A stretch of 57,122 nucleotides of DNA from an uncultured Eubacteriales bacterium (lineage in GTDB: Bacteria; Acidobacteriota; Aminicenantia; Aminicenantales; Aminicenantaceae). The stretch is from assembly GCA_964540205.1 (NCBI GenBank), contig CAZIMJ010000142.1, positions 1 to 57,122 on the forward strand, written 5' to 3'. Positions within the stretch are counted from its first letter, which is position 1. Each line of letters opens with the position of its first letter. The position numbers and the translations under genes are program-made. The notes beneath the pieces were generated by a model. It saw only the letters and a list, made by a program, of their open reading frames with translations. It had not been told where the DNA came from and searched no databases. Shown one piece after another: positions 32,394-57,028 of this stretch.

Positions 32394-35171
32394 CTACTTA
32401 TAACCGAAAAGCATACTATAAATGATTAACAGGATCAGCGAAATTCCGATAAAGAGGAAGATATAACCAAATATCCTCACCAGCGTCATTTTTTTGGGGG
32501 ATATTTCCTTGAGGACAACGTCTTTCTTCAACTGCCCCGATTCTTTCAAGTATTTGTATTCTTCAGGACGATCTTCTTTGTATTCATCGAGGGGGACCAA
32601 ACCTGTAAAAATGACAGGATCGAGGGGGAAGGATTCTGGACGCAGATGGGTATTGAAGAAATGGATTGTGAAGATAAAGCCCACAGCAAGTAGGGCTTCG
32701 TCGCTATGGATGATCATGGCGACATTGATGAACCAACCGGGCAGGAGCTTTGTAAAGAATTCCGGGAACCACAGGATCAATCCGGAAAATCCGATGACTC
32801 CCACTCCCCAGAAAACAGCCATGTAATCGAATTTCTCCCAGTAGGTCCAGCGCCCATATGCAGGTCGGGGACCCATACCTAGAAACCACTTGATCGAGCC
32901 GATAAAGTCTTTGAGATCTTTTTTGTTGAACCAGAGAGCTCTGCCCCCGAAGATCAACTGACGGACAGTTGTCCTTGTTTTGATCTTTAATCTGATCATG
33001 GAGTATATATGCGCGAAAAAATATCCGAAGGTGATTGCGGCAGAAAATCTGTGAATGCGCCCGGCCGCCTCTACTCCGCCAAACATATCGGCAAGAAACC
33101 TGGCCCAGGGCATGCTGGCAAACTTGAGCATCATTCCTGTCAGCGCCAATCCCATAAAACTCAGGATCACGAAGATGTGCATGATTCGCTGGTCTGTCGT
33201 GAACCGTTGGATGTAATACCTCTTGTGGATCTTTTCTGCGTTTCTTTTTTCTTTGAGGTGTTTGTAAGATCGAGGCATCCAGAGCAGAGTATGAATACCG
33301 AAAAAAGTGAATACGGAGATAAGCAATCCGGTCATGGCCCAGAAAGTAAAATACAGAATGGGATATTTCGCTTTATCGTGATGAGTGGCATGTGTCAGGT
33401 AGCCTGTGAATCGCCGATTGGCGTCAGAATGGCATTTCTGGCAGGTTTCGACCACTCTGTTGAATCCCACATGGGAATCAGGGTCGTCCACTTTAAGAAT
33501 GTCGTGTGCGCCGTGGCAATCTGAACACTTGGCTGTCTTCAGATAGCCAAGTGTGTAAGCTTTCCCGTGGATGGTTTCTGTGTAGGACTCTGACAGCTCC
33601 TCGTGACACGACCCGCATTGGTGGGTGACTTCGGACATAAACTGATCCATGTGGATGTCTTTGATCTGGTGTGCGGAGTGGCAGTCTTCACAGTTGGGAA
33701 GCTTCTCATTTAATTTGGAGATGGTTGAACTGTGAATGCTGTTCACAAAATCCTGGTAGATGCCTTCGTGGCAAGTCGCACAAGTCGAGGGAAGATTTTT
33801 GTGGTTAACGGATGATCGTTCATCCTCATGGTTCAAGATGAAGTGTGTACTGTGGCAGTCTGAACATACCGCGCTGGGTAAAAGACCTTTTTTTATCAAA
33901 CCTTGCCCATGTACGCTATTGGAATAATCGACGACAACTGTACCTTGATGGGTCTTTATAGTGGCCGGATGATCCAGCTTGCCATGGCAAGCTCCACACA
34001 ACTCAGGGATTTTTGACCGGTATGTTTTTGCCTGATCATTCAGATGGGATATAATAGTGTGTTTTCCGTGACAGTCTGTGCAGTAAGGAGAATCAGGGTC
34101 CTTCTCGAAATAGGCTTCTCCATGACCACTCTCAAAATAATCTTCAGCGATCTGGGCATGACAATTGGAACAATCGACCCGGCCTGCTGTTTCACAGGGA
34201 CGGTGTTTTTGCGGGCTGATATCTGCATGACATTTGACACAGGGGATGTTTTTGTGTGCAGAATCCTGGATGTCTTCTTTTTTGACTGTAAGAGAGATTT
34301 GTTGGCCTTCCACAGTCTTAAAAACATCGGGTTTCTCATGACACGTCAGACACTCCCGGTCGGAAGTCCTGATGACCAGATTTGTTCGTCTTATGGTATG
34401 AGGCTGATGGCAATCGGTACAGGCGGGTATGGCCCCTGGCTCTTGTTCCCAAAGTTCACCCTTGATGATCTTTATGTGAACTTCTTCAATCCGGGCATGG
34501 CATTTGGTGCATGTGTTGGCGATATTGCGAGCGGAGACTGTAGAACGAGAAATTGTATGTGGGAGGACGAGATGGTTGCCATGGCAATCATTGCAGGTGG
34601 CGGTCACGATGAGCCCTCGTTTGAAAAGGCCTTCCCCGTGGATACTCTGGGAATAATTACTTAAAATGTCGTGTTCTGGGATGTTGTATACTCGAGCAAC
34701 AGGAGCTCCCTCCCTGTGGCATTTTCCGCAGAGTACTGGGATATTCATTTTATAGGTGCGCGATCTCACATCGGAGGGAGGCAGGATACAGTGTTCTCCA
34801 TGACATTCTGCGCAGGTCGGTGCGTAGGGTGCACCTCGTCTTAAAGCATTTCCATGGATTCCCGCATTGAATTCTTCATCGGCCACGTCATGGCAGATCC
34901 CGCAGTTGACTCTTTCTAGTTGTTCCGGATGAGGAAAATCCTCGACATCTGCATTCTGGTGGCAGCCGATACAATCCGAGTCTTTGTGGACCGAGCCTGC
35001 AAATCTTTGGAAATCCACGTACAAGGAGACCGTGCGTCCTCTTCTCTCAGTCGTCAGTTCTCGATCGGAGTGGCAAGTTTCGCAATCTTCGTTACTCTGA
35101 GATCGAGCAATGCAAGGAACAAGAAAGAGGCCCAATAAGACAACGAAGAATATTTTTTTTATCGTCATCAA
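32394..35171 (-). CDS. 19-heme c-type cytochrome fused to a C-terminal membrane b-type cytochrome domain (HydC/FdnI-like; CbcL-like architecture)
   Basis: Signal peptide and 19 CXXCH motifs in residues 30-590. Next come about 330 aa with multiple TM helices and conserved His residues (RFTTDQRIMH..., IIHSDEALLAVGFIFTIHFFNTH). Confidence 0.85.
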   Translation of the reverse strand: MMTIKKIFFVVLLGLFLVPCIARSQSNEDCETCHSDRELTTERRGRTVSLYVDFQRFAGSVHKDSDCIGCHQNADVEDFPHPEQLERVNCGICHDVADEEFNAGIHGNALRRGAPYAPTCAECHGEHCILPPSDVRSRTYKMNIPVLCGKCHREGAPVARVYNIPEHDILSNYSQSIHGEGLFKRGLIVTATCNDCHGNHLVLPHTISRSTVSARNIANTCTKCHARIEEVHIKIIKGELWEQEPGAIPACTDCHQPHTIRRTNLVIRTSDRECLTCHEKPDVFKTVEGQQISLTVKKEDIQDSAHKNIPCVKCHADISPQKHRPCETAGRVDCSNCHAQIAEDYFESGHGEAYFEKDPDSPYCTDCHGKHTIISHLNDQAKTYRSKIPELCGACHGKLDHPATIKTHQGTVVVDYSNSVHGQGLIKKGLLPSAVCSDCHSTHFILNHEDERSSVNHKNLPSTCATCHEGIYQDFVNSIHSSTISKLNEKLPNCEDCHSAHQIKDIHMDQFMSEVTHQCGSCHEELSESYTETIHGKAYTLGYLKTAKCSDCHGAHDILKVDDPDSHVGFNRVVETCQKCHSDANRRFTGYLTHATHHDKAKYPILYFTFWAMTGLLISVFTFFGIHTLLWMPRSYKHLKEKRNAEKIHKRYYIQRFTTDQRIMHIFVILSFMGLALTGMMLKFASMPWARFLADMFGGVEAAGRIHRFSAAITFGYFFAHIYSMIRLKIKTRTTVRQLIFGGRALWFNKKDLKDFIGSIKWFLGMGPRPAYGRWTYWEKFDYMAVFWGVGVIGFSGLILWFPEFFTKLLPGWFINVAMIIHSDEALLAVGFIFTIHFFNTHLRPESFPLDPVIFTGLVPLDEYKEDRPEEYKYLKESGQLKKDVVLKEISPKKMTLVRIFGYIFLFIGISLILLIIYSMLFGYK

Positions 35172-35285: not shown

Positions 35286-35804
35286 TTACTGCTTTTCTGG
35301 CCTAGGATGCTTGACTTTTGCCCAGGCGGCGTCAAAATCGAAGGGTTTATCATGAGCATTTTCATGACAGGAAAGGCACTGTGTTTTTATAGCATCAGGC
35401 GAACCGTATTCTGTCAAACCGTTCTTCACAGCTTCGGCATGGTCTTTCATGATGCTCATCTTTTTGAATGCACTTCCAGGGCCATGACAGACCTCACATG
35501 ACACTCCCTCTTCTTTTAACTCGGGTGCCTTTTCCGCAAGTGGGCTATGGCATTTCAAGCATTTCGGATTGTCGGGAGCATCTGCTGCGAGCGCTTTGGC
35601 ATCATCAGATGTCAGTGCGGAGAATGATTTAGAATGTTTCCTGGCTTCCCATAAGGGAAACTGCTGGCCTTGTTTTTCACTCTTGTGACACATTTTGCAT
35701 TTCGCTGCACCCACATAAGTGAAATCCTGTGTAAAAAGCGTAAAAGGAATGATGATTATCAAAACTGCTGTTAAATAGATTAGCTTCTTCACCTCATCCT
35801 CCAT
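35286..35804 (-). CDS. periplasmic tetraheme c-type cytochrome
   Basis: CKMCH, CLKCH, CEVCH and CLSCH motifs plus a signal peptide (KKLIYLTAVLIIII). Start is ambiguous: ATG 35804, or GTG 35792, which has a GGAGGA 4 nt upstream. The track TTG at 35828 lies at or upstream of the predicted sigma54 transcription start. Confidence 0.8.
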   Translation of the reverse strand: MEDEVKKLIYLTAVLIIIIPFTLFTQDFTYVGAAKCKMCHKSEKQGQQFPLWEARKHSKSFSALTSDDAKALAADAPDNPKCLKCHSPLAEKAPELKEEGVSCEVCHGPGSAFKKMSIMKDHAEAVKNGLTEYGSPDAIKTQCLSCHENAHDKPFDFDAAWAKVKHPRPEKQ

Positions 35805-35835
35805 TCTCAAGATAGAATTATAACTCAAATATTAT

Positions 35836-35851
35836 AGCAAGATGTATGCCA
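35836..35851 (-). promoter_or_regulatory. sigma54 (-24/-12) promoter
   Basis: Minus strand reads TGGCAT-ACATC-TTGCT, with GG and GC at canonical spacing. Lies about 30-45 nt upstream of the tetraheme gene start. Confidence 0.6.
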
Positions 35852-35988: not shown

Positions 35989-38007
35989 TCAGAGGGATTC
36001 GTTTTCTGTTTCTTTTCCTATGGAGTCCACATTTTTTATCAAATTTGTCAAGGCCTCTTCCATATACATATAATTATGGATTCCTGAGCTACCGTCAAGC
36101 TTGATATTCTGAAGTGTGCATTCGGTTTCCCGCAGTGTCTTCTTCTCTTGTTCGCTCAGCTTCAGCTTTTTCTTTTCCTTTAGGAGTGACATCAGAGATG
36201 CGGACAGATCCTTCACGGATTGTTGCCATTCTGTGAACATGTCAGCATAATCCTCATCATGGCAGTCCAGGCACTTATTTTTATCGGACCTGAATATGTT
36301 GTTCTGATCATTAAAATGACAATCTGTACATTCTGCACCCGCTTCGAACATGATGTCTCCGGGGACTTCTTTTTCGTTGAGGATCCCACCCTGATAGAAA
36401 GTTTTCTGCAATTGATGACAACTCGTACAGTCTTTCTTAAGGTCTTTATGGTGACAGGACGCACAGCCCTTCTTTGTGGCGATGAGCTCGCCATGCGTGC
36501 GGACGTTTGAATGGCAGGTGTCACACTGGATGTTCTGTTCGATGAGGTGTTTTTTGTGTGGGAAATTTAGACCATAGACATATGCATTGATTTCCTCGAT
36601 CCCTTGATGGTAGTTGGAACACTGAGTGGGGATGTTTTTAGCTGGAGCTTCAAACGTTGGAGGTTTATAACGAGATTCAATGACATTCAGCGCCTCAAGC
36701 ATCTTATTGTAAGCAGCAAAAAGCAGTTCTTGGGAATAGGCGAAATTGTGGACACTCTTACCCTTGTCCACAATTTCGATATTGAATAGCGCTTCTTCCA
36801 TGAGGGATTCCGCATTCCTCTTGTTTGTGTGTCTTGATCCTTTGACGATCTGCAATGTGGAATTGTAGACAGACCTGATTTGGATTAGTTTTTTTGCGGT
36901 TGAGGTTTCCCAATCCCTGAGGATGAGAGAAAAACCTTTGGCATGGCAGGATTCACAGGATTCCGCCTCGGAAACAAATGTTTCTCCCTTGATGCCGTCG
37001 CCTTTGGCTTCCTCATGAAAGATGTGACAGCCTTTGCAGCTCAGTCCTTTTTCAAGCATGATGTTGGGCATGGGGTGAGAAACGCCCTTGCCACCTTCTC
37101 CGATATACAGCATTTTTTGAGCTTTATGAAAATCCGTATGACAGGATTGGCAATTGGCGATAGATTCAATATCCTTGATGATCTTGTGCTGGATTTCCAT
37201 GTGGCATTGGTTGCATTCGATTTTATTCTGAAAAATGTGTGTGTCGTGCATCAGGTCAGTATCCTCGTATTGCTCAAGCCTATCTTGCTCCCAGTGGCAC
37301 TTGTAACAGTTTTCTCTAGGAACTTCTCCATCACCAAGGACAGTGTTGGCGTGGCATTTGTCACAGGTGAAACCGTTATCGAAAACAAGAGAGTGATTGA
37401 ATCGTGTGTCTTCATTGTTGACAAGGGTGTCTTTTGTATGGCAATGGGAACAATCATCTATCTGGGGATAGTGCTCGCTTTTTTTGAAATGGCAGATGAA
37501 GCAGGTGCTTTCAGTGACCGTGATGTGCTCTCCCTGAACGATCTGGGAGTGGCAGCTTGTGCACTGGAGGCGTTTCCCCCTTTTTAGATCTTCGAAATGG
37601 ATTTTGTGGTCGAAGACAACCTTTTTGAATTTGACTCGGCCTTCAAGTAACCTTCTATCGTGACATCCTTCTGTCAAGCAACTCTCATCGCGGATCTCTG
37701 CCCATGGTTTAGATTTGACGTAAAGCTTAGTCCAGTAGCGACCCACCATGACGAGTCCCTCGATCTTTTTTCTCAACACGGACCGGATTCCTCCGGATGG
37801 TGGATAATGGCACGCACTGCATTCGAATTCACTGTGCGAAGATGTTTCCCAACTTTCGAAAAAAGGCTTCATAAAATGGCATGAGGCACAAAAACCCGAA
37901 TGAGACGTGAATTCCACGGCTGTAACAAACAGAACTAGAACAAATAAAGCGATACTGCCAAAAATGATAAGTCTCTTTTTTCTTTTTTTATGTTTCTTTT
38001 CTTTCAT
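35989..38007 (-). CDS. membrane-anchored multiheme cytochrome (16 CXXCH + 1 CX4CH) with a NapC/NirT/NrfH-like N-terminus
   Basis: ATG 38007 after GAGGA gives MKEKKHKKRKKRLIIFGSIALFVLVLFV (TM anchor). CASCH...CSACH follows, as in NapC/NrfH quinol dehydrogenases, then 14 further CXXCH motifs. The track extension to 38292 overlaps ccsA. Confidence 0.85.
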   Translation of the reverse strand: MKEKKHKKRKKRLIIFGSIALFVLVLFVTAVEFTSHSGFCASCHFMKPFFESWETSSHSEFECSACHYPPSGGIRSVLRKKIEGLVMVGRYWTKLYVKSKPWAEIRDESCLTEGCHDRRLLEGRVKFKKVVFDHKIHFEDLKRGKRLQCTSCHSQIVQGEHITVTESTCFICHFKKSEHYPQIDDCSHCHTKDTLVNNEDTRFNHSLVFDNGFTCDKCHANTVLGDGEVPRENCYKCHWEQDRLEQYEDTDLMHDTHIFQNKIECNQCHMEIQHKIIKDIESIANCQSCHTDFHKAQKMLYIGEGGKGVSHPMPNIMLEKGLSCKGCHIFHEEAKGDGIKGETFVSEAESCESCHAKGFSLILRDWETSTAKKLIQIRSVYNSTLQIVKGSRHTNKRNAESLMEEALFNIEIVDKGKSVHNFAYSQELLFAAYNKMLEALNVIESRYKPPTFEAPAKNIPTQCSNYHQGIEEINAYVYGLNFPHKKHLIEQNIQCDTCHSNVRTHGELIATKKGCASCHHKDLKKDCTSCHQLQKTFYQGGILNEKEVPGDIMFEAGAECTDCHFNDQNNIFRSDKNKCLDCHDEDYADMFTEWQQSVKDLSASLMSLLKEKKKLKLSEQEKKTLRETECTLQNIKLDGSSGIHNYMYMEEALTNLIKNVDSIGKETENESL

Positions 38008-38138
38008 CGCTTTTTCCTCGTGGATATTCAGCCGCGTATTATAGTCGATCTGCCTGAGTTTGGATCTCTTCGTTATCCTGTTATCTTCTCTATTTCTTAA
38101 TCGAACTCTTTTATTACAGAGTCGCTCTGGCACGGAGA

Positions 38139-38957
38139 TCAAGTGTAGCTGTGGAGTCCGGCTAGCAGATAATTCACGCCGAAGTAAGTGAAGAGTGCAG
38201 CAAGAAATCCGATTACGGCGATGAGTGCGGACCGGCGCCCCTTCCAACCCATCACGACCCGTGTGTGTAAATACAGAGCAAAAACGAACCAAGTGATCAG
38301 ACTCCAGGTCTCTTTAGGGTCCCAACTCCAGTAACTTCCCCAGGCTTTATAAGCCCAGACCATACCGAAAACGAGTCCTCCAAGTGTAAAAAGCGGGAAT
38401 CCGATGGCGATGGTTCTATAACTGATGGAATCGAGTTTTTCAGCTGTCAGAGAAGATTTTGCAGCCATTCCCTTTTTCTCTTTAGAATCTGCCACTAGAT
38501 ACATAATGCTTGTGATAAATCCTACAGCGAAAAAAGCCTCACCGAGAAGAGTGACAGAAACATGAAGCCACAGCCAATAACTCTGGAGTGCAGGGACAAG
38601 TGGTGTGGCTTCTTTGGGCATGAGTGGCGAGGAGGCCAGTGCCATCAGCCCGATCACAATAAGCATAAAATACGGACCGGCATTTTTTATTTTAAACTTC
38701 CCTTCGATAAGAACATAGGCAAAGATGGCGGACCATGCGAGGAAAGAGAGGGATTCATACATGTTTGTAAAGGGCGCATGTCCGCTTTCAATTGTTCTTA
38801 AAATCAGAGCCGCCGTATGAACGATGAGACCCGCAAATGCAAAGGTGTATCCTGATTTGGCGAGGTTATCTTTTTTCGAAAAGAGGTAGGTAAAATAAAA
38901 GAATGCAGCCACGATGCAGAGGATAAACGCTATAAGAAATAGAGTGGATTCGTTCAT
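38139..38957 (-). CDS. ccsA: cytochrome c biogenesis protein CcsA/ResC (system II heme handling)
   Basis: WGSYWSWDPKETWSLITW tryptophan-rich (WWD) motif, multi-TM, 272 aa. 4-nt overlap with the resB-like gene. Confidence 0.9.
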   Translation of the reverse strand: MNESTLFLIAFILCIVAAFFYFTYLFSKKDNLAKSGYTFAFAGLIVHTAALILRTIESGHAPFTNMYESLSFLAWSAIFAYVLIEGKFKIKNAGPYFMLIVIGLMALASSPLMPKEATPLVPALQSYWLWLHVSVTLLGEAFFAVGFITSIMYLVADSKEKKGMAAKSSLTAEKLDSISYRTIAIGFPLFTLGGLVFGMVWAYKAWGSYWSWDPKETWSLITWFVFALYLHTRVVMGWKGRRSALIAVIGFLAALFTYFGVNYLLAGLHSYT

Positions 38958-40306
38958 TGTGATCTCCTTATGGACTCCATGATTTTGTCAAACTCCGATT
39001 GGAAATCCTCGCGGTTTTTAGCGGCTATCCCGCCGGTTGTGAGATCCGTTTTATTCTGACTTTCTTCAAGGATGATTTTGATCTCTCGAGTGGGCCAGAA
39101 AAAAGCTACAAATAGGCCAACCATAAGAAGGGTACAGCCCACCCAGATAAAGTTGACTCCGGGGTCCTTGGACATCTGAATACCAGAGTATTGGGCGGCT
39201 CGCAAGTCTTTAAATTCAAAGGATAGATCGGTTTCTATGGCTGAATGCATGCGCCCGAAGTCAGGGAACTTGGCAAAGATCCAACTTGAGAATACTTTCT
39301 CTTCCTCTCGCCAGCCTTCGATATAGGCTGCAGGATTATTTGGCTCGAGCGAGCGGGTGGCGATCTCGTTGTTCTCACCGATGATGAAATCCGGAACAAA
39401 ATTGATGACAGCTATTTCGATGTTCTCCTCACCGATCTGCGCTTTTTCTCCCACTCCGAGCTCAAACTTTTTCAAGAAGGCGGGGTCATTTTTCTTTTTG
39501 GCCCAGATCTCTAGTGTAGGATTCTCCCAATCCCATCCATAACTGCTCTGGTAGAAGACAAATCCTTTATGGGAGAGTGGGTGATTGACCTCGATGGTTT
39601 TAGATAAAACATCCGAGCCGTTTTCTATAACTGTGAGGGTGCTTTTCCAGTCCCGGACACTCCCGTTTGGATGATACTCTGTGACAAACTTATCCAGCCG
39701 GAGTTCAAAATCTGCTTGGGGGACAGGAATGGTTTTCCCCTCGGAAATATTCAGATTGGTCCGGAATCCGCTCATTCCACTGATAATCCCACCGATGATA
39801 ATTATGAGAAGGCCGAGATGAACGATATCTGAGCCGAAAAGTCCGAGTACTCGCTTCCGTGCGAGTAAGAACGCCGTGTTTTCGTTTTGATCTGTTTTAA
39901 GACGGAAATGTTTGGATGAAAGCATTTTTTGGACATCAGGTATTGTCTTTTCTAGATTCTGATTCTTTTTGAAACTGGCTGTTGTTTTCAGAGAGAGCAG
40001 CTTCTTTTTCTCTGTCTCAAACTTTGGTTGGAATGCCTTTCTCAATTTTGGAGAGAGGCGGGTGAGTGTGCAAACAAGGATATTCACTGCAAAGAGAAAG
40101 AGCAGAGAGATGAACCACCAGGATTGATAAAGTTTGGTGAACTCTAGCCTGATGAGAAAATTAGCAATATCTCCGTATCGGTCCAAATATTCTCCCGGGC
40201 TGCGCTGCTGAGGGATCAATGTGCCCAGAATGGAAGCTATGGTGATAAAGATCAAAAGAAAAATGGCGAGTTTAACAGAACTGAAAAAATTGAAAAATGA
40301 TTTCAT
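38954..40306 (-). CDS. ccsB: cytochrome c biogenesis protein ResB/CcsB
   Basis: N-terminus FFSSVKLAIFLLIFITIASILGTLIPQ, a large periplasmic domain and C-terminal TM helices, 450 aa. Confidence 0.9.
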   Translation of the reverse strand: MKSFFNFFSSVKLAIFLLIFITIASILGTLIPQQRSPGEYLDRYGDIANFLIRLEFTKLYQSWWFISLLFLFAVNILVCTLTRLSPKLRKAFQPKFETEKKKLLSLKTTASFKKNQNLEKTIPDVQKMLSSKHFRLKTDQNENTAFLLARKRVLGLFGSDIVHLGLLIIIIGGIISGMSGFRTNLNISEGKTIPVPQADFELRLDKFVTEYHPNGSVRDWKSTLTVIENGSDVLSKTIEVNHPLSHKGFVFYQSSYGWDWENPTLEIWAKKKNDPAFLKKFELGVGEKAQIGEENIEIAVINFVPDFIIGENNEIATRSLEPNNPAAYIEGWREEEKVFSSWIFAKFPDFGRMHSAIETDLSFEFKDLRAAQYSGIQMSKDPGVNFIWVGCTLLMVGLFVAFFWPTREIKIILEESQNKTDLTTGGIAAKNREDFQSEFDKIMESIRRSQ

Positions 40307-41857: not shown

Positions 41858-41894
41858 AAAAAAAAGGGCAGCATTTTCGGATGCTGCCCTTTTT
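41858..41894 (-). terminator. rho-independent terminator ending the porin-cytochrome operon
   Basis: GGGCAGCAT-tttcgg-ATGCTGCCC is a 9-bp GC-rich stem. It is flanked by A8 on the plus strand (U8 on the minus transcript) and T5. Lies 27 nt downstream of the 41921 stop. Confidence 0.8.
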
Positions 41895-41920: not shown

Positions 41921-44068
41921 TTAGCGCCATTTGTATGGGCTAACATCTCCTCCGAGGTGTCCGATTGAATCCACGAGCAATTGAGAAATGTACTTGGAAT
42001 TATGGATGAATCCATGGGATTCTTTCTTGCTGACTTGGTAGTTGTAAGCCGCTCTAAGCAGTTTTGCATCGAAACTAAGGTAAAGATTCGGATAGATGGC
42101 TTCACCCGGGTCTACTATTCCATTTCCGTTGCGGTCGTTGAAGAAGTACGGATAGGCAAGACTATCGTAGACAATGGGTGCACCGATCACAGTTGCCGCG
42201 TAGACCTGGATTTGAGCGTAAAGGGCTTCTTCGAGGATTTTGATTTCAGATTCGATGGATTCGGTAATGTCTCCATTGCCGTTGTAATCAGGCGTGGGAG
42301 CAGGACGAATACCACTGAACTTGAACTTGGCGGGATCTGCACCAGGATTCGGCTGAGAGACATCCTGTCCGTGGCAGTAGACACAGTCTTCGGGATTGGG
42401 TTTGTGTACGTTGTGGAGTTCACCTGTATAGTCATAAGGTTTATGCTCGCTCTGTGTCCCCATGTGGCACTCGACACATGTGTCGAACTGGCCGTTGTGG
42501 TTGTGCCAAAGTTTCTGTCCTATGTATTGTTTACCCTTGAACTCGTATCCGCCGTGAACTTCGGACCCAAACAGGACGGCTGCTGTGGGATAGTAGTGGA
42601 TATTGATGAATGTGTAGGGGCCACCTGGTTTGGCAGCGATTGCTTGGTCGATTGTTTTTTTCGATTCACGTCCCTGATGACAGTTCAGACAGAGGTTGCT
42701 ACTATCGCCCATGTCCTCACTCACTCCGGATGGGAACTCGACAGCACTAAATTGCAGCACAGCTGGAGGAGAGGTATGACAGGTCACACAGAGCATTCCA
42801 TTGGAGAGTTCTGCAGGCATGTTTTCACCAAATTCAAGAAGATCTCGAAGGCCGACGGTGCTGTGGCATTTGGCACAACTGCCCGGAATTTCTCCATCTT
42901 CATCCCAGTGTCTCCAGGCCTCGGCTGAACCGTCAAAATGGCCCTCGTCGGTCCTGTGCATTTCACTAATGTCCACAGGATTTTTAAGCTTTTTGTTCAA
43001 ATCCGCGGTGGAATCATAGAGAAGCTCTATAATGTATTTCCCACCGTGAGCATAGGCGTTCGGGTCTTTCTGAGCGACCTGATAGTTGTAGCAAGCCTTG
43101 AGAAGACGACCTGTAAAAAAGGTGTATCTGTTGCCGAAGTTCGCTTCATCTGGATCAGCGACACCGTTTCCGTTTGTGTCATTGAAAAAATAGGGGTAGG
43201 TATGGGAATCGTAGACAATGGGATTACCAGTGACCGTACTTCCATATTTCTGGATAGCTCTGTAGAGTCTGCTTTTGAATGGTTCGATCTCGTAGTAGAT
43301 GCCTTCTTCCATATCCCCATCACCATCATAGTCAACGAATGAGCCGTAATAGCGGATATCTTTGGGATCTCTGACTCCGGTATGACAGGTTTGGCATGGC
43401 CCACTGATGTCTACTTCTAATGAATGTGAATTGTGGCAGGTGATGCAGGCGTTATAACCCGGGATGTGAGCGAATCGAGCATCGTATGTGATTCCGTCAT
43501 ACTCGTATCCTGCATGGACAACGCTTCCAAATTGGTCGGCAGCTGCCGCATAATAGTGGATGTTAAGGAATCCAATATCGGCGCTCACGGTATCGTCATC
43601 TGCAACATTTGCGTCTTCGATTTCCTCATCCACTGTTATTTTCGACTCTCTTCCCTGATGGCACTCCATACATAGGGCTTCTGGGCCTATTCCCTCCACC
43701 GTTACTCCCGATGGAAATGTCACATCTGTGTGGTTATGCACGATTCCTCGCTCTGGGTCTGAATGGCAGGCTTCACATTCTATTCCTTGCGGGAGTGGTT
43801 GACTGCCCGTGCTCCCGGATTGCAAAAACGATACTATTCCTGTGGGCGTGTGGCATTTAGCACAGTCTGCCTCAACCTCCCCGTCTTCGTCCCAATGCCT
43901 AAAAGCTTCGGCATCGGCGTCCGCATGTCCTGATGTACTCCATAGCTTTTCTGCGTGTGTTTTTTTCGACTGGATACCCACTTGGTCGTCGGATTTTGCT
44001 GTGAGCGAGAAAAAAGCGGCCAAAAAGACTACCAACAGGATGCTTAGAATTTGTGGTTTCTTTATCAT
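41921..44068 (-). CDS. secreted decaheme cytochrome built from two tandem pentaheme modules
   Basis: Signal peptide and 10 CXXCH motifs. Residues about 40-370 and 375-715 are clearly homologous (for example AFRHWDEDGE..CAKCH / AWRHWDEDGE..CAKCH; YPYFFNDTNGNGV.DP / YPYFFNDRNGNGIVDP). Confidence 0.85.
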   Translation of the reverse strand: MIKKPQILSILLVVFLAAFFSLTAKSDDQVGIQSKKTHAEKLWSTSGHADADAEAFRHWDEDGEVEADCAKCHTPTGIVSFLQSGSTGSQPLPQGIECEACHSDPERGIVHNHTDVTFPSGVTVEGIGPEALCMECHQGRESKITVDEEIEDANVADDDTVSADIGFLNIHYYAAAADQFGSVVHAGYEYDGITYDARFAHIPGYNACITCHNSHSLEVDISGPCQTCHTGVRDPKDIRYYGSFVDYDGDGDMEEGIYYEIEPFKSRLYRAIQKYGSTVTGNPIVYDSHTYPYFFNDTNGNGVADPDEANFGNRYTFFTGRLLKACYNYQVAQKDPNAYAHGGKYIIELLYDSTADLNKKLKNPVDISEMHRTDEGHFDGSAEAWRHWDEDGEIPGSCAKCHSTVGLRDLLEFGENMPAELSNGMLCVTCHTSPPAVLQFSAVEFPSGVSEDMGDSSNLCLNCHQGRESKKTIDQAIAAKPGGPYTFINIHYYPTAAVLFGSEVHGGYEFKGKQYIGQKLWHNHNGQFDTCVECHMGTQSEHKPYDYTGELHNVHKPNPEDCVYCHGQDVSQPNPGADPAKFKFSGIRPAPTPDYNGNGDITESIESEIKILEEALYAQIQVYAATVIGAPIVYDSLAYPYFFNDRNGNGIVDPGEAIYPNLYLSFDAKLLRAAYNYQVSKKESHGFIHNSKYISQLLVDSIGHLGGDVSPYKWR

Positions 44069-44079
44069 GGGTTCCTCCT

Positions 44080-45951
44080 CTATTTATCCCAACTATAGCC
44101 AAATGATATCTCGAAGATATTGACCTTGTAGTCATTGAATCCGGATATCGGTTCTTTGTAATCCACAACCCGGTAGGCCAGCTCTGCAGCCAATCCCATA
44201 AGGAATTCGTACTCAATGTAGGCTTTGAACGTGGTGCGCTTGATCTCCCAGAAACCGGTGTTTTTGTAGAAATTGGCGTAGGCACCGAAGCCCCACTGTT
44301 CATTCAGGTCCCAATCGAGGTAGAAATCCCAGAGAGTGGATTTGCCTTCGTACATGATTTCCCACATGAACGCGCCACCCGGTCCACTCCAATCTGGTGG
44401 ATATTCAACACTCCGGTCGCCCTTGTGCTCCACGTCGATAAGAGCATATCCGGCAAAAGCTTTGATCTTTTCAGTATGATATCCGGCTCGAAGGTTGAGC
44501 ATGTTTTTACTCGATTCCCAGAGCTCATCATAGAGATCATTCTTGGATTTTTGAAAGGTCATTGCTGCAGAGCCGTAGAACTCTTGCAGGCGCACTTTTG
44601 CTGTGGTTCTAAATCGATTATAGGTCATGGGGGAGGTCAGCGTATAGGGATTGTCGTAGGACCCATATTGATGGTCGAATGTTAGATTGAAGATCCGGGA
44701 AGGCGTCCACTGCAGGTTGCCGAAGATCCCATTCCTCGTTGTATCGGTTTCATAGTCTACAGTCTCCAACTCCTCGCTTTTCAACTTTCTCTTCTCGTTC
44801 CTGTATCCGAATGTCAGGCCAAATTTTGATGAGAACTGATACTGAAGTCCGGCTTCGATTCCAAGGGTGTTAAATTTGGGTTCAGTGGTTTTTGTCTCGC
44901 CATCGACGGTCATGGAGCCTTCCTGTTTGAAGTCGTGTGAGCGGACAGCTCCGATCACAGCCAGCTTGTGTGTCACGAGGTATGTGAAGTCTAATTCGTA
45001 GAGTCCGATCTTGCGCTCGAATTTTCCAGTACCACTCATACTGTAATCGAAGGGTCTTCCCAGGTAATTGACGCCATCTGTTTCCTCTGAGTAATGAAGG
45101 TCCATATCCAGGTCGCTGATCTGAGCGATTCCTTTGATCAAGAGACTATCGATCGGCTTGGTGTTGAGTTTGAATGTGTGTGTGAGAGATTTGAGATCAT
45201 AGGGTTGGTCCATGTAGAAATAGCTCAACGAAGAAGGATACCCTGCCCCAGCTCCACCATCGGCTGCGCCAGGAAGGAAGTAACTATTGGTATTTTCGTA
45301 CTCCCGGACTTTTGCCTCATAGACAAGAGAGAGGCGTGAAAAGTGAACATCCACACCTACGGCGATCTCATCAGATTTTTCCTCGATGGGCTTATCGAAC
45401 TCGAATTCGATCCTGTTGATGTCGAGTGTTGTAACACTCATTCCTTTCTTTGTGAATCCGAAATACGAAGCAAAAAGCTGAACATTCTTTGATGCCTCTA
45501 ATGAGAACATCGCGCTGTCCATCGTCCTGTCGAAATCAAAGGTGTGGTAATCGTAGAGGTGGCCGTTGAACTGAGTCTGGTCTGCGTAAAAATAGGCAGA
45601 TTTTCTCCGTTCCCACTTGAATTTATAGCTTCCGTATTTCTGGACGGTGAGATCGAACGACTGGAAAGGTTCGATCCCTAGATTGCGGACGCTGATATCC
45701 AGACGGTCGAAGAATGTCTTGAGGGTTTCTTCCGGCGTGTAACTGAGGTTGAATGAGTGTAGATACGCTCCTGAGCCGAGGTTGATATCTTCTTTGTACT
45801 TTGTGTAAGCTCCGCTGGTGTCGACGAACCGGTAACCGAACTTGAAGTCTCCTTTGAACTTTTTCGCTTCCTCTTGAGCGGAGAGAGAAAATGTCATTGA
45901 TAGGACAAAGACAAACAATAAAACGGGCAATATAATTTTTATTCTTCTCAA
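44080..45951 (-). CDS. putative outer-membrane beta-barrel protein (MtrB/PioB-like position in a porin-cytochrome operon)
   Basis: Signal peptide MRRIKIILPVLLFVFVLSMTFSLSAQ. 623 aa of alternating aromatic/polar beta-strand-like segments with no Cys or heme motifs. Sits between two decaheme genes. Confidence 0.65.
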   Translation of the reverse strand: MRRIKIILPVLLFVFVLSMTFSLSAQEEAKKFKGDFKFGYRFVDTSGAYTKYKEDINLGSGAYLHSFNLSYTPEETLKTFFDRLDISVRNLGIEPFQSFDLTVQKYGSYKFKWERRKSAYFYADQTQFNGHLYDYHTFDFDRTMDSAMFSLEASKNVQLFASYFGFTKKGMSVTTLDINRIEFEFDKPIEEKSDEIAVGVDVHFSRLSLVYEAKVREYENTNSYFLPGAADGGAGAGYPSSLSYFYMDQPYDLKSLTHTFKLNTKPIDSLLIKGIAQISDLDMDLHYSEETDGVNYLGRPFDYSMSGTGKFERKIGLYELDFTYLVTHKLAVIGAVRSHDFKQEGSMTVDGETKTTEPKFNTLGIEAGLQYQFSSKFGLTFGYRNEKRKLKSEELETVDYETDTTRNGIFGNLQWTPSRIFNLTFDHQYGSYDNPYTLTSPMTYNRFRTTAKVRLQEFYGSAAMTFQKSKNDLYDELWESSKNMLNLRAGYHTEKIKAFAGYALIDVEHKGDRSVEYPPDWSGPGGAFMWEIMYEGKSTLWDFYLDWDLNEQWGFGAYANFYKNTGFWEIKRTTFKAYIEYEFLMGLAAELAYRVVDYKEPISGFNDYKVNIFEISFGYSWDK

Positions 45952-45960
45952 TTTTCTCTC

Positions 45961-46818
45961 CTATTTCAAAAAGATCTTGCTCAGATTGGAACCGTGAATG
46001 GTTGCGTGACAGCTCGTACAATTTGTCGAGTAGGAATCGAAGCGTTCGTGCCAGGCAGGTGCTGCCCCATGACAACTGAAGCAGAGGTCCGCAATGCTGT
46101 GGAATGTGAGCATGTGCCTGTTGGGGCTTCCGTGGACATCATGGCATGCGGAGCAACCTTCGATCCTCGATGCGCCGTGTTCATGAAGGTAAGGGCCTTC
46201 CTTATCTGTGTGGCATTTGAAGCAGGATTCGTGCTTGAAGCCTCCTAAGCGCTCTCGTGTGGCTGGAACATGAGGATCATGACAGTCCGAGCAGTCCATG
46301 ATTCCTTCCTGGAGTCTGTGGCGTTCGTTTAACTGGAACTCGGAAAAAACTTCCTGATGACAGATATAACAAGTTTTTGTCGCGCCAAGCTTTAGGAGAG
46401 AAGGATTTGTCTCTTCCGCGTGCATGACATGGCAAGAGGTACAGTCCATGGAAGCTTTTCCATGGGGGCTTGCAAAGTAAGCGGAATTGGACTTGGCATG
46501 ACATGTCAGGCATTTGTCAGTTTTCGCGTTCGGAACATCTGTGGATTTAAAAGCAAAGATGTTTGCTCCCCCTCCTTCTTCGAAGTGCGTCTCAGCATCG
46601 CCGTGGCAAGCCGTGCAGCTGTTATTAACAGCATGAGGCTTGGACATGAATGCTTTGGCCAAGTCTTCATGACAATCGGCGCAAGTGTCGATATCCGCTT
46701 CTTGAACAACAGGTTTGGCAGCGGATAGATACCCTGCAACGACCAGCGCTAAGCCAATGAGCACGATCATCTGGAGGGAGGGCCATGTTTTCTGTTTTGT
46801 GAATTTTGTGTGCAACAA
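45961..46818 (-). CDS. periplasmic decaheme c-type cytochrome, MtrA/DmsE-like
   Basis: 285 aa with 10 CXXCH motifs (about one heme per 28 aa) and a signal peptide. Immediately upstream of the beta-barrel gene. Confidence 0.85.
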   Translation of the reverse strand: MLHTKFTKQKTWPSLQMIVLIGLALVVAGYLSAAKPVVQEADIDTCADCHEDLAKAFMSKPHAVNNSCTACHGDAETHFEEGGGANIFAFKSTDVPNAKTDKCLTCHAKSNSAYFASPHGKASMDCTSCHVMHAEETNPSLLKLGATKTCYICHQEVFSEFQLNERHRLQEGIMDCSDCHDPHVPATRERLGGFKHESCFKCHTDKEGPYLHEHGASRIEGCSACHDVHGSPNRHMLTFHSIADLCFSCHGAAPAWHERFDSYSTNCTSCHATIHGSNLSKIFLK

Positions 46819-46828
46819 AGACCTCCTA

Positions 46829-47209
46829 TTAGTAGGTTTTTCCCTTATTTTTTTTATCCTCTATCCCTTGAGATAGAGCCCTGATTTGCCCTGAATCGAA
46901 GGGTTTCTCGATGATGGCATTTACTGAAATGCCTTCGATTTGGGACTCGATCTGCTTTTGAGATTGGGCGGACAGGATGATTATTTGTGTTTCTGGATGA
47001 GACTTCTTCAGTTTTTTCAGCATGTCAATGCAGTTCTCATCTTCAATTTCAAAATCAACAAAGATCAACTGGTACGAAACTTTTTCTGTTTGGCTAAAAG
47101 CGTCGTTTATGTTGGAAACAACATCTACGTAATGGCCTTCCTGGGCAAGTATTTCCTTTAAAGACCATCGGATAAGCTTGTCATCGTCAATTACGAGTAC
47201 TTTTAGCAT
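46829..47209 (-). CDS. single-domain response regulator (CheY-like receiver)
   Basis: MLKVLVIDDD..., phospho-acceptor context LIFVDFEI, ILSA, EKPF. No output domain. ATG 47209 follows AAGGTG. Confidence 0.9.
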   Translation of the reverse strand: MLKVLVIDDDKLIRWSLKEILAQEGHYVDVVSNINDAFSQTEKVSYQLIFVDFEIEDENCIDMLKKLKKSHPETQIIILSAQSQKQIESQIEGISVNAIIEKPFDSGQIRALSQGIEDKKNKGKTY

Positions 47210-47238
47210 AAACACACCTTTATTCTAAGTCTCTATTT

Positions 47239-47254
47239 AGCAATAGTTGTGCCA
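47239..47254 (-). promoter_or_regulatory. sigma54 (-24/-12) promoter
   Basis: Minus strand reads TGGCAC-AACTA-TTGCT, a perfect match to TGGCAC-N5-TTGCW. Lies about 30 nt upstream of the receiver gene ATG. Confidence 0.65.
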
Positions 47255-47347: not shown

Positions 47348-47383
47348 TGGGTGAAATACACCAAAAGTGGGTGATATCACCCA
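47348..47383. promoter_or_regulatory. candidate enhancer (UAS) for a sigma54 activator
   Basis: Half-site TGGGTGA, then 13 nt, then the perfect 16-bp palindrome TGGGTGATATCACCCA. Lies about 95-130 bp upstream of the sigma54 promoter. The same architecture occurs at 35935-35970. Confidence 0.55.
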
Positions 47384-52256: not shown

Positions 52257-52307
52257 ATAGATATTCTAGTGTTTGTTTCTCTATTGTTTTTTGCTACAAT
52301 TCAGGAC

Positions 52308-53213
52308 ATGAAAAATATAACTTGGGGATTGTTTCTTTTAATTTTAGTAGGAGGATTGGGATCTATGTGCACGAGTTCAAAAAATGGAGATACAGATCTG
52401 GGTACTTTGTTGCCCAAGGAAATAAACGGATGGAGTGTTTCTGGAGAGGATAAGCTCTTTGATACGGAGACGATCTTCGACTACATAAACGGTGCTGGAG
52501 AAGTATACCGGGCATACAATTTTAAGTCACTCTTGGCCAGACAGTTCTCCAGAGAAGGTCAGCCGAATATCATCGCCGACCTATTCGATATGGGTTCTGC
52601 CAAGGATGCTTACGGTATTTTTACTCATAGTCTTGAGGAGGAAGATGCTGAGATCGGTCAAGGAGCCACCTACATGGAAGGCTTGCTTTCTTTCTGGAAA
52701 GATCGCTTTTTTGTGTCCTTGTATGCGGAAGAAGAGACTCCTGAAGCCAAGGAGGCTCTGTTTTCATTTGCGAAAAAAGTTGCATCATCGATAAGTGAAG
52801 GGGGGCAAATTCCTGACATCGTTTCTCTCTTTCCGCCTGAAAATCTGGACAGGACAAAGATCCGTTATTTCCACAGTTACATCATCCTCAATTATCATTT
52901 CTTCATGGCGGATGAAAATATCCTCTACCTGGATCAGGAGACAGATGCAGCCCTTGGCCTGTATGAACAAAATGGGGAGAGGTCTTACCTTCTCCTCGTT
53001 CGTTATCTCAATGAGGAGAAGGCCAAAGAGGCCTTTGATAATTTCTTAGAGGTTTACATGCCGGATGCGGGAGAATCGAACATTGTCAGGACTGAGGACG
53101 GCCAATGGACTGCCACTCGACTAAACGGTGATTTGCTGAGTGTGATTTTTAATGCGCACTCCGAATCTCATGCAAAAGAGATTCTCGACAGTGTTGAGAA
53201 CAGGCTCCCGTAG
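52308..53213 (+). CDS. hypothetical secreted protein / possible lipoprotein
   Basis: ATG 52308 gives MKNITWGLFLLILVGGLGSMCTSS, a signal peptide with an atypical lipobox. No family recognised. Confidence 0.6.
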   Translation: MKNITWGLFLLILVGGLGSMCTSSKNGDTDLGTLLPKEINGWSVSGEDKLFDTETIFDYINGAGEVYRAYNFKSLLARQFSREGQPNIIADLFDMGSAKDAYGIFTHSLEEEDAEIGQGATYMEGLLSFWKDRFFVSLYAEEETPEAKEALFSFAKKVASSISEGGQIPDIVSLFPPENLDRTKIRYFHSYIILNYHFFMADENILYLDQETDAALGLYEQNGERSYLLLVRYLNEEKAKEAFDNFLEVYMPDAGESNIVRTEDGQWTATRLNGDLLSVIFNAHSESHAKEILDSVENRLP

Positions 53214-53261
53214 TAAAACATCCCTAACTCTGTGATATCAAGAATGCTCTATAGCGTTGTT

Positions 53262-53321
53262 GAGTGATCAGATTGTGTGGTGGAGAAAACCGTGTTTTCG
53301 CAATCACCAATCTGATCATTC
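53262..53321. repeat. 60-nt imperfect palindrome / compound hairpin
   Basis: A 14-bp outer stem (53262-53275 with 53308-53321, one G-T pair), a GTG/CAC middle stem, and an inner GAAAAC-cgt-GTTTTC hairpin. No following T-run. Confidence 0.5.
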
Positions 53322-53396
53322 GAGACGGCTATCATCACGGAAATAAGGATGCGTTAGTTTAAATGCTTTGCTCGATCTAAATATTAAGGAGGGATC

Positions 53397-54290
53397 ATTA
53401 AAAAAAGAATAATCACTCGGCGGGATTTTTTGCGTGTTACGGCTCTATCCCCTTTAGCCGGGGCATTTGCTTCGAGCCTCAAGTTCTCAGGCGGTCAGTC
53501 GCCATCACCACAAGCGAAAGTGATTCTTATCAGGGACGAAAACGCTCTTGTTGCTTTCAAAAAACCCGATGCCAAAGTTGTTCAGCGGATGCTCGATGAA
53601 GCGTTATCGACATTGCTGGCAGAAAAGGAACCGATTCAAGCGTGGAAGCAGGTGATTAATCCTTCGGATATTGTTGGGATCAAGTCGAATGCCATGAATT
53701 ATCTCCCTACGACTGCGGAGGTGGAGCAGATTATTAAAAGACGCGTTCTTGATGCAGGAATTCCGGAGGAAAACATCGGTATAGATGACAGAGGCGTGAG
53801 AGGAAATCCTATCTTTCAAAAGGCAACGGCTATCATCAATGTCCGCCCAGCGAGAACCCATCATTGGTCAGGGATCGGTGGCTGTATCAAAAATCCCATC
53901 ATGTACTCCTCCCGTCCGAGCGATTATCATCCGGACTCCTGTGCAGACCTTGCAACTCTCTGGGATCATTTCGACCTCCGAAAAAGAGTTAAGCTGAACA
54001 TTCTCCTCATGCTGAATCCCCAATTTCACACAGTCGGCCCCCACAGCTATGCCAATAAATATGTCTGGGAGTACAAGGGTATCCTCGTCAGTCAAGACCC
54101 TGTGGCAGTGGATGCGGTCGGTTTGCGAATTATCCAGGCGAGGCGGCTCGAGTATTTCGGGGAAGACAAACCTCTTCAGACTCCTGCCAAACATATCCGA
54201 CTTGCTGACACGCGGCATCACTTGGGTGTCAGCGACCCGAACAACATCGAACTGATCAAGCTCGGTTGGACAGACAAAATCCTTATTTAA
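53397..54290 (+). CDS. Tat-exported DUF362 domain protein (probable ATT start)
   Basis: DUF362-like body. A consensus twin-arginine motif TRRDFLRV is encoded upstream of the first canonical start (TTG 53430). In that frame only ATC, ATT or ATA codons follow the stop at 53385. ATT 53397 lies 4 nt after AAGGAGGG. Confidence 0.7.
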   Translation: MKKRIITRRDFLRVTALSPLAGAFASSLKFSGGQSPSPQAKVILIRDENALVAFKKPDAKVVQRMLDEALSTLLAEKEPIQAWKQVINPSDIVGIKSNAMNYLPTTAEVEQIIKRRVLDAGIPEENIGIDDRGVRGNPIFQKATAIINVRPARTHHWSGIGGCIKNPIMYSSRPSDYHPDSCADLATLWDHFDLRKRVKLNILLMLNPQFHTVGPHSYANKYVWEYKGILVSQDPVAVDAVGLRIIQARRLEYFGEDKPLQTPAKHIRLADTRHHLGVSDPNNIELIKLGWTDKILI

Positions 54291-55562: not shown

Positions 55563-55565
55563 TGA

Positions 55566-56477: not shown

Positions 56478-57028
56478 TTGATTGTTCCCGGTCTTTTTGG
56501 TGGGGGTTCCGGTTTCATTTTCTTAAATTTCGGGGAATGAGGATCATGGCAATGGGCACACAAAAGGTACTCCTTCTGTCCGTTCCAGCTGCCGGTTCTC
56601 CTGCCGTGGATACCCGCTCTCCAATCCCTCAGCTTGGGGCCATGGCACTGGCCGCAAAGCTTATAAGATTCTTTGAAATCGATCAATTGACCGCTGGCTG
56701 AGTGCAGCATGTCTCGATTATTGGCGTCATGACAATCCATGCACCACCTGTTCTCTTCATCGTGCTTAAGGATGATATCCTCATGGAATTCTTTCAGCTC
56801 TCTTCTCTGGAGGTTAATATCCATGTCAGCATGGCATCCCGAGCAGGGGAAAATATCCTCGCTGAAAGGAGGGGGAGGGAGCTGGATATCCATCTGTTCT
56901 TTCCCCACAGAATGCTGAGTTTTTCCTTCGGAGTCAGATGTTTGGGTGCTGGTCACAAGCAGAGGAAAAAAAAGCAAACAAATAAGTGCCGAAGTGAGAA
57001 AAATCCATTTAAATCCGAATGTTCTCAT
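56474..57028 (-). CDS. membrane-anchored or periplasmic tetraheme c-type cytochrome
   Basis: CSGCH, CMDCH, CGQCH and CAHCH motifs with an N-terminal hydrophobic segment. ATGA overlap with the downstream FeS subunit gene. Confidence 0.8.
   Translation of the reverse strand: MRTFGFKWIFLTSALICLLFFPLLVTSTQTSDSEGKTQHSVGKEQMDIQLPPPPFSEDIFPCSGCHADMDINLQRRELKEFHEDIILKHDEENRWCMDCHDANNRDMLHSASGQLIDFKESYKLCGQCHGPKLRDWRAGIHGRRTGSWNGQKEYLLCAHCHDPHSPKFKKMKPEPPPKRPGTIK

Follow-up and report, generated by a model that had tools for sequence, protein, structure and literature searches.

In the MtrCAB conduit of Shewanella, represented by the Shewanella baltica complex (PDB 6R2Q; chain A, MtrA; chain B, MtrB), a decahaem cytochrome is encoded beside an outer-membrane barrel of about 26 strands, and a third ten-haem protein, with its haems arranged as two sets of five, belongs to the same operon. 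We describe an operon with a comparable set of parts in a 57,122-nt stretch of DNA from an uncultured Eubacteriales bacterium that GTDB places in the Aminicenantaceae (Acidobacteriota, class Aminicenantia; contig CAZIMJ010000142.1 of assembly GCA_964540205.1, positions 1 to 57,122 of the forward strand). The whole of this stretch is referred to below as the window. The operon lies on the minus strand and encodes a response-regulator receiver domain, a 285-aa decahaem homologue of MtrA, a divergent MtrB-like barrel of 623 aa and a 715-aa decahaem cytochrome. The order of the conduit genes here is A-B-X, where Shewanella has C-A-B, and the barrel is only about 12% identical to MtrB and has no CXXC motif. 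Unlike MtrC, OmcA and UndA, the 715-aa protein has no lipobox and no PF22113 domain, and its non-haem domains are modelled as helical instead of as beta-barrels.

How does this locus compare with the other described conduits? MtoAB of Sideroxydans and PioAB of Rhodopseudomonas palustris have the same A-then-B order, with an MtrA-family decahaem and an MtrB/PioB-family barrel devoid of CXXC. They have no outer multihaem partner and are tied to Fe(II) oxidation or electron uptake, whereas here a 715-aa decahaem is co-transcribed and the neighbouring genes look like quinol-oxidising modules. The DmsEFAB system of Shewanella likewise joins an MtrAB-type module to another extracellular partner, but that partner is a molybdoenzyme rather than a multihaem cytochrome; one report on this system (PMC9732548) gives the precedent that MtrAB-type modules can serve partners other than cytochromes. 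The OmaB-OmbB-OmcB and Ext clusters of Geobacter are likewise built from three parts and open with a regulator gene, and CbcL-like and NapC/NirT-like inner-membrane partners are encoded near the conduit here too. No sequence relationship to Mtr is known for the porin-cytochrome (Pcc) proteins of Geobacter, among which OmcB is lipid-anchored and the porin is a barrel of about 20 strands. Their parts, as described in PMC4245776, are an eight-haem periplasmic protein, a porin-like protein and a twelve-haem outer-membrane cytochrome. The haem counts here are ten and ten, and the A and B parts are both Mtr homologues. Membership of the Geobacter Pcc or PCC3 class was therefore rejected on haem counts, barrel size and Mtr homology, the Oma, Omb and Omc proteins being compared by description.

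Within the Acidobacteriota, the EET2 clusters of Bryobacterales (bioRxiv 10.64898/2026.05.27.727921) and the Group 5 MtrCAB clusters of Acidobacteriia (PMC8805035) are likewise divergent Mtr-like conduits with low identity to characterised proteins. They belong to the class Terriglobia and include MtrC-like proteins, whereas the Aminicenantia cluster has no MtrC. The census of MtrCAB demanded mtrC, mtrA and mtrB together and found, among Acidobacteriota, only Acidobacteriia/Bryobacterales (PMC8805035); because all three genes including mtrC were required, it could not have found the Aminicenantia cluster. A paper of 2025 extended Mtr to the Desulfobacterota, and Mtr-like clusters from peat Bryobacterales and Verrucomicrobiota are the subject of a preprint of 2026 (bioRxiv 10.64898/2026.05.27.727921). 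Metagenome-assembled genomes (MAGs) of Aminicenantia from ferruginous sediments have been called iron reducers by FeGenie (PMC12740246). In the literature on Mtr, porin-cytochrome and multihaem proteins of Aminicenantes or Aminicenantia we found only calls of this FeGenie type, and the cluster and the family of its 715-aa protein are undescribed there.

A divergent MtrAB module

The operon was brought to our attention by a prediction made from the DNA sequence by eye, which proposed a porin-cytochrome operon built on MtrAB logic and possibly a conduit of an undescribed class. The gene set and order of this original prediction are present as proposed (Table 1). Its intergenic gaps of 9-11 nt are 10, 9 and 11 nt in gene order, and its strong terminator is a 14-bp hairpin followed by a T-run; together the short gaps and the terminator define a four-gene operon, in which a Shine-Dalgarno-like sequence precedes the start of each gene. 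Ten CxxCH motifs within 285 aa and orthologues in about 70 genomes rule out a chance origin.

The 285-aa protein carries these ten motifs behind an N-terminal hydrophobic Sec signal, and its length falls within the approximately 250-330 aa expected of the MtrA, DmsE, MtoA and PioA decahaems. Its best-scoring family model is TIGR03508, the DmsE family of NCBIfam, which it matches with 169.8 bits over profile positions 3-257 of 258. When it was searched with phmmer against all PDB chains, the sole match was MtrA (6r2q_A, E=6.9e-24), residues 60-278 aligning with 92-324. As judged from these alignments, the protein is unambiguously a divergent cytochrome of the MtrA/DmsE lineage. It also scores 142 bits on the NCBIfam model "GSU2203 family decahaem", and the barrel scores a weak 28 bits on the neighbouring model "GSU2204 family CXXCH-containing (seleno)protein". 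This pair of scores hints at an uncharacterised MtrAB-like pair in Geobacter sulfurreducens; following the GSU2204 family in the literature yielded nothing informative on the barrel.

The decahaem gene adjoins the barrel gene in each of the 70 orthologous loci described below. The barrel itself had been said to lack recognisable similarity to MtrB. At 12% identity this is true by eye, and it is refuted by profile and fold comparison. Alone in Pfam, the 623-aa protein has only weak matches to generic outer membrane protein models. An AlphaFold2 (AF2) model built from 29 homologues (mean predicted local distance difference test score, pLDDT, 82) contains 28 beta elements, most simply read as 26 strands because elements 241-248 and 352-356 appear too short to span a membrane; it is thus a large barrel of more than 20 strands, as expected of the predicted conduit. 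A Foldseek comparison with the PDB placed MtrB first (6r2q_B, E=1.5e-16, template modelling (TM) scores 0.64/0.61), ahead of 22-strand TonB-dependent receptors at E about 1e-10 and TM 0.40-0.53, and the strand number and this best match both support the proposed MtrAB logic. Orthologues of the barrel at 52-57% identity pass the Pfam MtrB_PioB model (30-40 bits against a cut-off of 23) with alignments colinear over positions 2-398 of the profile (PF11854), and one orthologue carries the NCBI name "MtrB/PioB family outer membrane beta-barrel protein". A family profile (A3) was built from a 48-sequence alignment of the window's barrel and diverse members at 18-57% identity. It matches MtrB 6r2q_B at E=3.9e-14, nearly end to end (profile 89-634 on MtrB 98-694), and MtrB is the only match of the profile in the PDB.

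The modelled fold, the orthologues recognised by Pfam and the family profile all indicate that the barrel is a very divergent relative of MtrB/PioB. A narrow profile (A1) of Aminicenantes barrels only found no match among PDB sequences, and the barrel relatives furthest from the window's protein mostly failed to match MtrB_PioB when scanned with Pfam, so that the bridge to this family works for some members only. On both grounds the barrel family is a remote sister of the canonical MtrB/PioB set rather than a part of its core. An exhaustive search with the profile hidden Markov model of the family returned 857 clusters at 50% identity. No record came up when the window's own barrel was looked up by its exact sequence. 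The missing CXXC had been offered as an atypical feature. The barrel does have no cysteine at all, so there is no N-terminal CXXC, and Shewanella MtrB, whose sequence we checked, does carry one. The motif is, however, a signature of gammaproteobacterial MtrB, and for the wider MtrB/PioB family its absence is uninformative.

With an A part of MtrA/DmsE lineage and a B part remotely homologous to MtrB/PioB, the proposal of an undescribed conduit class does not stand. In this operon a deep-branching MtrAB module is combined with a partner cytochrome of a new type and with a distinctive control circuit based on sigma-54. Its trans-membrane core is of a known kind, and the new element is the 715-aa cytochrome.

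A tandem-pentahaem cytochrome, the proposed partner

The ten CxxCH motifs of the 715-aa protein lie at residues 69, 98, 133, 208 and 225 and at 398, 427, 460, 531 and 562. Its two halves are 41% identical (E=4e-79), which shows that the protein arose by tandem duplication of one pentahaem module. Each copy, of about 340 aa, consists of five haems followed by a non-haem domain. The plain signal peptide of the original prediction is there, as a basic-hydrophobic N-terminal sequence; there is no lipobox, because the first cysteine is C69, inside the first haem motif, and a lipobox is also absent from the consensus of the orthologues. All haem motifs are of the CxxCH type and none is CxxCK, and the family has, in addition to the motif histidines, enough invariant ones for each of the ten haems to be bis-His ligated. 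Conserved acidic loops (DxDGDGD / NGNGxxD) resemble calcium sites, which are commoner in extracellular proteins.

Which family does it belong to? Searched against all PDB chains, among them MtrC, MtrF, OmcA and UndA, as a single sequence and as a profile, it gave nothing significant, and there was no match to the Pfam MtrC/MtrF domain PF22113 at E<=0.01. In the AF2 model, which is of moderate confidence (pLDDT 66), the confident non-haem parts are helical and unlike the beta-barrel domains of MtrC. Each module thus runs as five haems and then a helical domain in the model, and NrfA too has five haems followed by a helical domain. Foldseek returned no significant match for the model. Its top rows were OcwA of Thermincola potens (PDB 6I5B; E=0.26, TM 0.22-0.31), a Carboxydothermus S-layer cytochrome and NrfA enzymes. 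OcwA is a surface multihaem terminal reductase of the NrfA lineage and, like the 715-aa protein, is not lipidated; it differs in having nine haems and in belonging to a Gram-positive cell wall. As every structural match falls below significance, an affinity to NrfA or OcwA was kept as a lead only. By sequence and by model, the 715-aa protein is unrelated to the MtrC/OmcA family and matches no characterised family.

Relatives are numerous, 5455 of 8000 scored candidates falling at E<=0.001, and orthologues within the Aminicenantes are 60-88% identical, a conservation above that of the barrel. Some relatives (P0193, P0230, P0236) are approximately 1050-1080 aa long, a length that would fit a third module.

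Distribution and synteny

Scanning one genome per species gave 70 orthologous loci, nearly all of them in MAGs of Candidatus Aminicenantes, Aminicenantales or Aminicenantaceae, the best being 86-93% identical, which assigns the window to the same lineage. Synteny was surveyed with phmmer across all of these loci. The decahaem-barrel pair is found in every one, and in about 60 of the 70 species-level genomes the 715-aa decahaem gene directly follows the barrel gene, giving a three-gene core. In many loci these genes are followed by those for an octahaem cytochrome, ResB, CcsA and a NapC-like protein of 16-17 haems, and a kinase, a sigma-54 regulator and a receiver are encoded upstream in about a third. 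Locus L074 (DATKYD010000029.1) reproduces the whole region of approximately 17 kb. The most distant barrel relatives, at 25-34% identity, come from MAGs labelled Thermoanaerobaculia, Polyangiaceae and Pseudomonadales (L063, L064, L066, L068, L069, L071), and their loci are bare decahaem-barrel pairs with no 715-aa gene, like MtoAB and PioAB.

Public labels are unreliable in this set. The L074 contig with its complete Aminicenantes-type region is filed as "Candidatus Heimdallarchaeota archaeon", and many of the orthologous MAGs are titled "uncultured Eubacteriales".

A predicted sigma-54 control circuit

Directly upstream of the operon lie genes for an NtrC-type, sigma-54-dependent response regulator and a sensor histidine kinase, which overlap by 4 nt. 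In a predicted periplasmic loop, flanked by two predicted membrane helices, the kinase carries its only CxxCH (CYACH, residue 153). Of the 16 kinase orthologues detected, 14, including every close one, likewise have exactly one such motif. The kinase is a candidate c-haem sensor of redox state or gas that would control extracellular respiration.

The operon itself is preceded by a -24/-12 promoter element (TGGCAC-N5-TTGC; TGGCACAACTATTGC) approximately 25 nt upstream of the receiver start. Among loci with a receiver, 11 of 22 have a similar element in front of that gene; among loci without one, 3 of 39 have it in front of the operon. Some 100-130 nt further upstream, a pair of enhancer-like sites is arranged in tandem: TGGGTGATATCACCCA, which is perfectly palindromic, and TGGTGTATTTCACCCA. 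The 16-mer occurs eight times in the window at up to three mismatches against 1.55 copies expected, a number reached in none of 100 shuffles. Its sole other perfect copy, TGGGTCATATCACCCA at 35950-35935 on the minus strand, lies about 85 nt upstream of a second sigma-54 element, TGGCATACATCTTGC, which precedes an operon for a tetrahaem cytochrome and a 925-aa CbcL-like protein. Where an orthologous locus has the set of kinase, regulator and receiver, two or three such sites are found in the corresponding intergenic region, along with a conserved TTATTTTCAAT stretch and a TGGCAY-N5-TTGC element. A generic scan had called the palindrome a terminator, and the hairpin at 47388-47363 was considered as the terminator of the regulator gene. 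This was rejected as the principal explanation because the 16-mer is present as a tandem pair, is retained in other loci and is found again before the second sigma-54 promoter.

Since the same predicted binding sites precede the conduit operon and the CbcL-like operon, the adjacent kinase and NtrC-type regulator are implicated in both. The simplest reading suggests that the two operons form one regulon, with the kinase signalling to both through the NtrC-type activator. This would support the view that the outer-membrane conduit shares a pathway with an inner-membrane quinol dehydrogenase.

The receiver at the head of the operon had been put forward as an unusual feature. It is a genuine receiver domain, of 128 aa from a GTG at 47215 or 126 aa from an ATG at 47209, whose translation keeps all the phospho-acceptor positions (DD, D54, S82 and K104), but it is no fixture of the cluster, being present in only about a third of the orthologous loci (about 25 of 70, usually with the kinase and regulator). 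Its role within the operon is probably that of a phosphate sink or a feedback element.

A proposed route from quinol to the cell surface

Why would a bacterium of this group encode such an operon? The most likely function is outward extracellular electron transfer. The 285-aa MtrA homologue would be threaded through the approximately 26-strand barrel to give an insulated haem wire across the outer membrane, and that the operon has such an MtrAB-type wire in a pore at its core is, in our judgement, very probable. The co-translated 715-aa decahaem would be exported without a lipid anchor and dock on the outer face as an electron-distributing terminal cytochrome, taking the role of MtrC though unrelated to it. 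Electrons would be drawn from the quinol pool by a NapC/NirT-type 16-haem protein and a CbcL-like fusion of 19 haems with a b-type domain, pass through octahaem and tetrahaem carriers in the periplasm, and be handed on outside to acceptors that are insoluble or polymeric, for example Fe(III)/Mn(IV) oxides or humic substances. Transcription would start at the sigma-54 promoter, activated by the adjacent NtrC-type regulator from its two tandem palindromic sites, and the regulator would answer to the kinase whose periplasmic domain carries the c-haem-binding motif.

We lean towards this full reading, an outward MtrAB-type conduit with the 715-aa protein as its surface terminal cytochrome and with mineral or humic acceptors. 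The position of that protein outside the cell, the outward flow and the acceptors are argued from context, which comprises the tight linkage of its gene to that of the barrel, the further carriers encoded for the periplasm, neighbours of a quinol-oxidising kind, the habitat and the FeGenie iron-reducer calls (PMC12740246). Several observations weigh against it. The 285-aa protein falls under the curated cut-off of TIGR03508 (169.8 against 192.2 bits), which places it on a divergent branch rather than in the core subfamily, and a Pfam scan of the window's own barrel, even at E<=1, gave no match to PF11854 (MtrB_PioB). Sequence does not fix the direction of electron flow, because the MtrAB homologues MtoAB and PioAB run uptake elsewhere. 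The 715-aa protein could be periplasmic, since it has no lipobox, matches no known surface cytochrome and has a model of moderate confidence; the window contains no type II secretion genes; and P0193 (1067 aa; L073 8001-11204) has no MtrAB-like neighbours and adjoins genes for a haem-sensor-type kinase and for NrfD/Fe-S proteins.

In one alternative the conduit has two components, as in MtoAB and PioAB, and the 715-aa decahaem stays in the periplasm, where it stores electrons or shuttles them between inner membrane and MtrA-like protein. Its plain Sec signal without lipobox, the lack of secretion system genes nearby and the isolation of the 1067-aa relative among periplasmic or inner-membrane redox genes would all fit, and in Group 5 clusters of Acidobacteriia a periplasmic cytochrome is encoded directly downstream of mtrB (PMC8805035). 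We nevertheless consider such an arrangement unlikely. The octahaem and two tetrahaems already provide periplasmic carriers nearby, the 715-aa gene is coupled to the barrel gene by 11 nt and follows it in almost all Aminicenantes loci, and the best resemblance of the protein, although non-significant, is to the surface cytochrome OcwA. Its acidic loops resembling calcium sites, which are commoner outside the cell, are a weak argument in the same direction.

Could the same hardware run inwards, so that Fe(II), reduced minerals, humics or a syntrophic partner would supply the quinone pool or periplasmic reductases with electrons? The A-then-B order is that of mtoAB and pioAB, and the most distant barrel relatives are bare two-gene decahaem-barrel modules of the same kind. 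FeGenie counts the MtrAB-type family as ambiguous between oxidation and reduction (PMC7005843), and Fe-oxidation hits have been recorded in four Aminicenantia MAGs (PMC12740246). Set against this are the neighbouring NapC/NirT-type and CbcL-like quinol dehydrogenases and a window that shows no sign of autotrophy or of a high-potential acceptor chain. Quinol dehydrogenases of these two types serve outward transfer in Shewanella and Geobacter, and we regard an inward conduit as quite improbable here. That the 715-aa protein is an extracellular enzyme whose NrfA/OcwA-like pentahaem modules reduce a soluble substrate, fed by the conduit as DmsEF feeds DmsAB, is very improbable: its only resemblances are indeed to OcwA and to NrfA-type nitrite reductases (E 0.26-10) and its modelled modules have the NrfA-like order, with DmsEFAB as a precedent for a non-cytochrome partner (PMC9732548), but none of these structural matches is significant, all ten motifs are CxxCH with no CxxCK, and the invariant extra histidines suffice for bis-His ligation of every haem.

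Returning to the outward conduit, a further proposal is made tentatively, as something close to an even call. The 715-aa protein may found a new family of secreted, lipid-free, tandem-pentahaem surface cytochromes that dock on MtrAB-type conduits. With MtrC/OmcA and DmsAB, this would bring the kinds of extracellular partner to three, and the whole pathway would be turned on, by way of sigma-54, by a kinase with a c-haem sensor in the periplasm. If this holds, the Aminicenantia would be mineral- or humic-respiring electroactive bacteria with an outer-surface chemistry of their own.

Anoxic sediments, aquifers and digesters are rich in Aminicenantes (OP8), and the Aminicenantia, globally abundant and uncultured, are usually described as fermenters; to our knowledge, no electroactive representative of the Aminicenantes has been cultured. 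A conserved and apparently complete route from quinol to the surface may provide the molecular basis for the iron-reducer label that metagenomics has attached to them, and the MtrAB module is extended to a deep branch of the Acidobacteriota. The 715-aa family adds a possible terminal reductase to the multihaem cytochromes and is a target for structural work and conduit engineering, and the conserved arrangement of haem kinase, sigma-54 promoter and enhancer sites offers a directly testable regulatory circuit for extracellular respiration.

Neighbouring genes

Table 1. The conduit operon, its control elements and associated redox genes; positions are those of the window
Feature	Position	Strand	Basis
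Receiver gene	46829-47215	minus	Pfam Response_reg, E=2.6e-20, 73 bits; first in operon
285-aa decahaem gene	45961-46818	minus	10 CxxCH, Sec signal
623-aa barrel gene	44080-45951	minus	No Cys
715-aa decahaem gene	41921-44068	minus	10 CxxCH as 5+5, Sec signal, no lipobox
Intrinsic terminator of the four-gene operon	41861-41894	minus	14-bp stem, 6 G-C pairs, T-run
Sensor histidine kinase, 496 aa	48835-50325	minus	Pfam HAMP/HisKA/HATPase_c
NtrC-type sigma-54-dependent response regulator, 465 aa	47441-48838	minus	Pfam Response_reg, Sigma54_activat, HTH_8
Sigma-54 -24/-12 promoter of the conduit operon	47240-47254	minus	TGGCAC-N5-TTGC
Two tandem enhancer-like sites	47348-47383	minus	16-mer, one copy a perfect palindrome
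Second sigma-54 promoter	35837-35851	minus	Precedes tetrahaem/925-aa CbcL-like operon
Octahaem cytochrome, 414 aa	40523-41767	minus	Eight CxxCH; Pfam PF13447 (Multi-haem_cyto/HAO-like), E=9.6e-31
ResB	38954-40306	minus	Pfam ResB, E=1e-84; system II cytochrome c maturation
CcsA	38139-38957	minus	Pfam Cytochrom_C_asm, E=1.6e-54; system II cytochrome c maturation
NapC/NirT-type membrane-anchored 16-haem protein	35989-38007	minus	16 CxxCH and one CX4CH; Pfam Cytochrom_NNT
Tetrahaem cytochrome	35286-35828	minus	Haem motif count
925-aa protein	32394-35171	minus	19 CxxCH; C-terminal cytochrome-b561/FdnI-like membrane domain
Tetrahaem, Tat-signal DsrO-like Fe-S protein and DsrP-type NrfD protein	54309-57028	minus	At the window edge

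Downstream of the conduit operon, the octahaem cytochrome, in a transcription unit of its own, is likely a periplasmic carrier. The 16-haem NapC/NirT-type protein beyond the maturation genes is a candidate quinol dehydrogenase. Its open reading frame as listed (35989-38292, minus strand, 767 aa) overlaps ccsA; the true start is probably Met96 at 38007, which gives about 672 aa. Its orthologues have 656-695 aa and 17 motifs, and the one in L074 has 672 aa. The 925-aa protein, whose architecture we take to resemble that of Geobacter CbcL, has a membrane domain that scores 29 bits on Pfam Ni_hydr_CYTB, just under the cut-off of 30.1, and 33.5 bits on TIGR01583. At the window edge, the DsrO-like protein scores 178 bits (cut-off 200) and the DsrP-type NrfD protein 407 bits (cut-off 350); with their tetrahaem these genes are, by sequence, a further quinone-linked redox module.

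A DUF6599-DUF362 gene pair stands beside the conduit region in the window (52269-54290, plus strand) and in two distant loci (L001, 3820-5675; L002, 204-1996), in both of which it adjoins Rrf2 regulator genes. The plus-strand genes at 8990-17954 are an ordinary metal-efflux island. The first encodes a copper-type P1B ATPase that has YHS and HMA domains, and after it come genes for an outer-membrane factor, a CusB-like fusion protein and an AcrB/CusA-type pump, a set of the CusCBA type. The remainder of the window consists of housekeeping genes.

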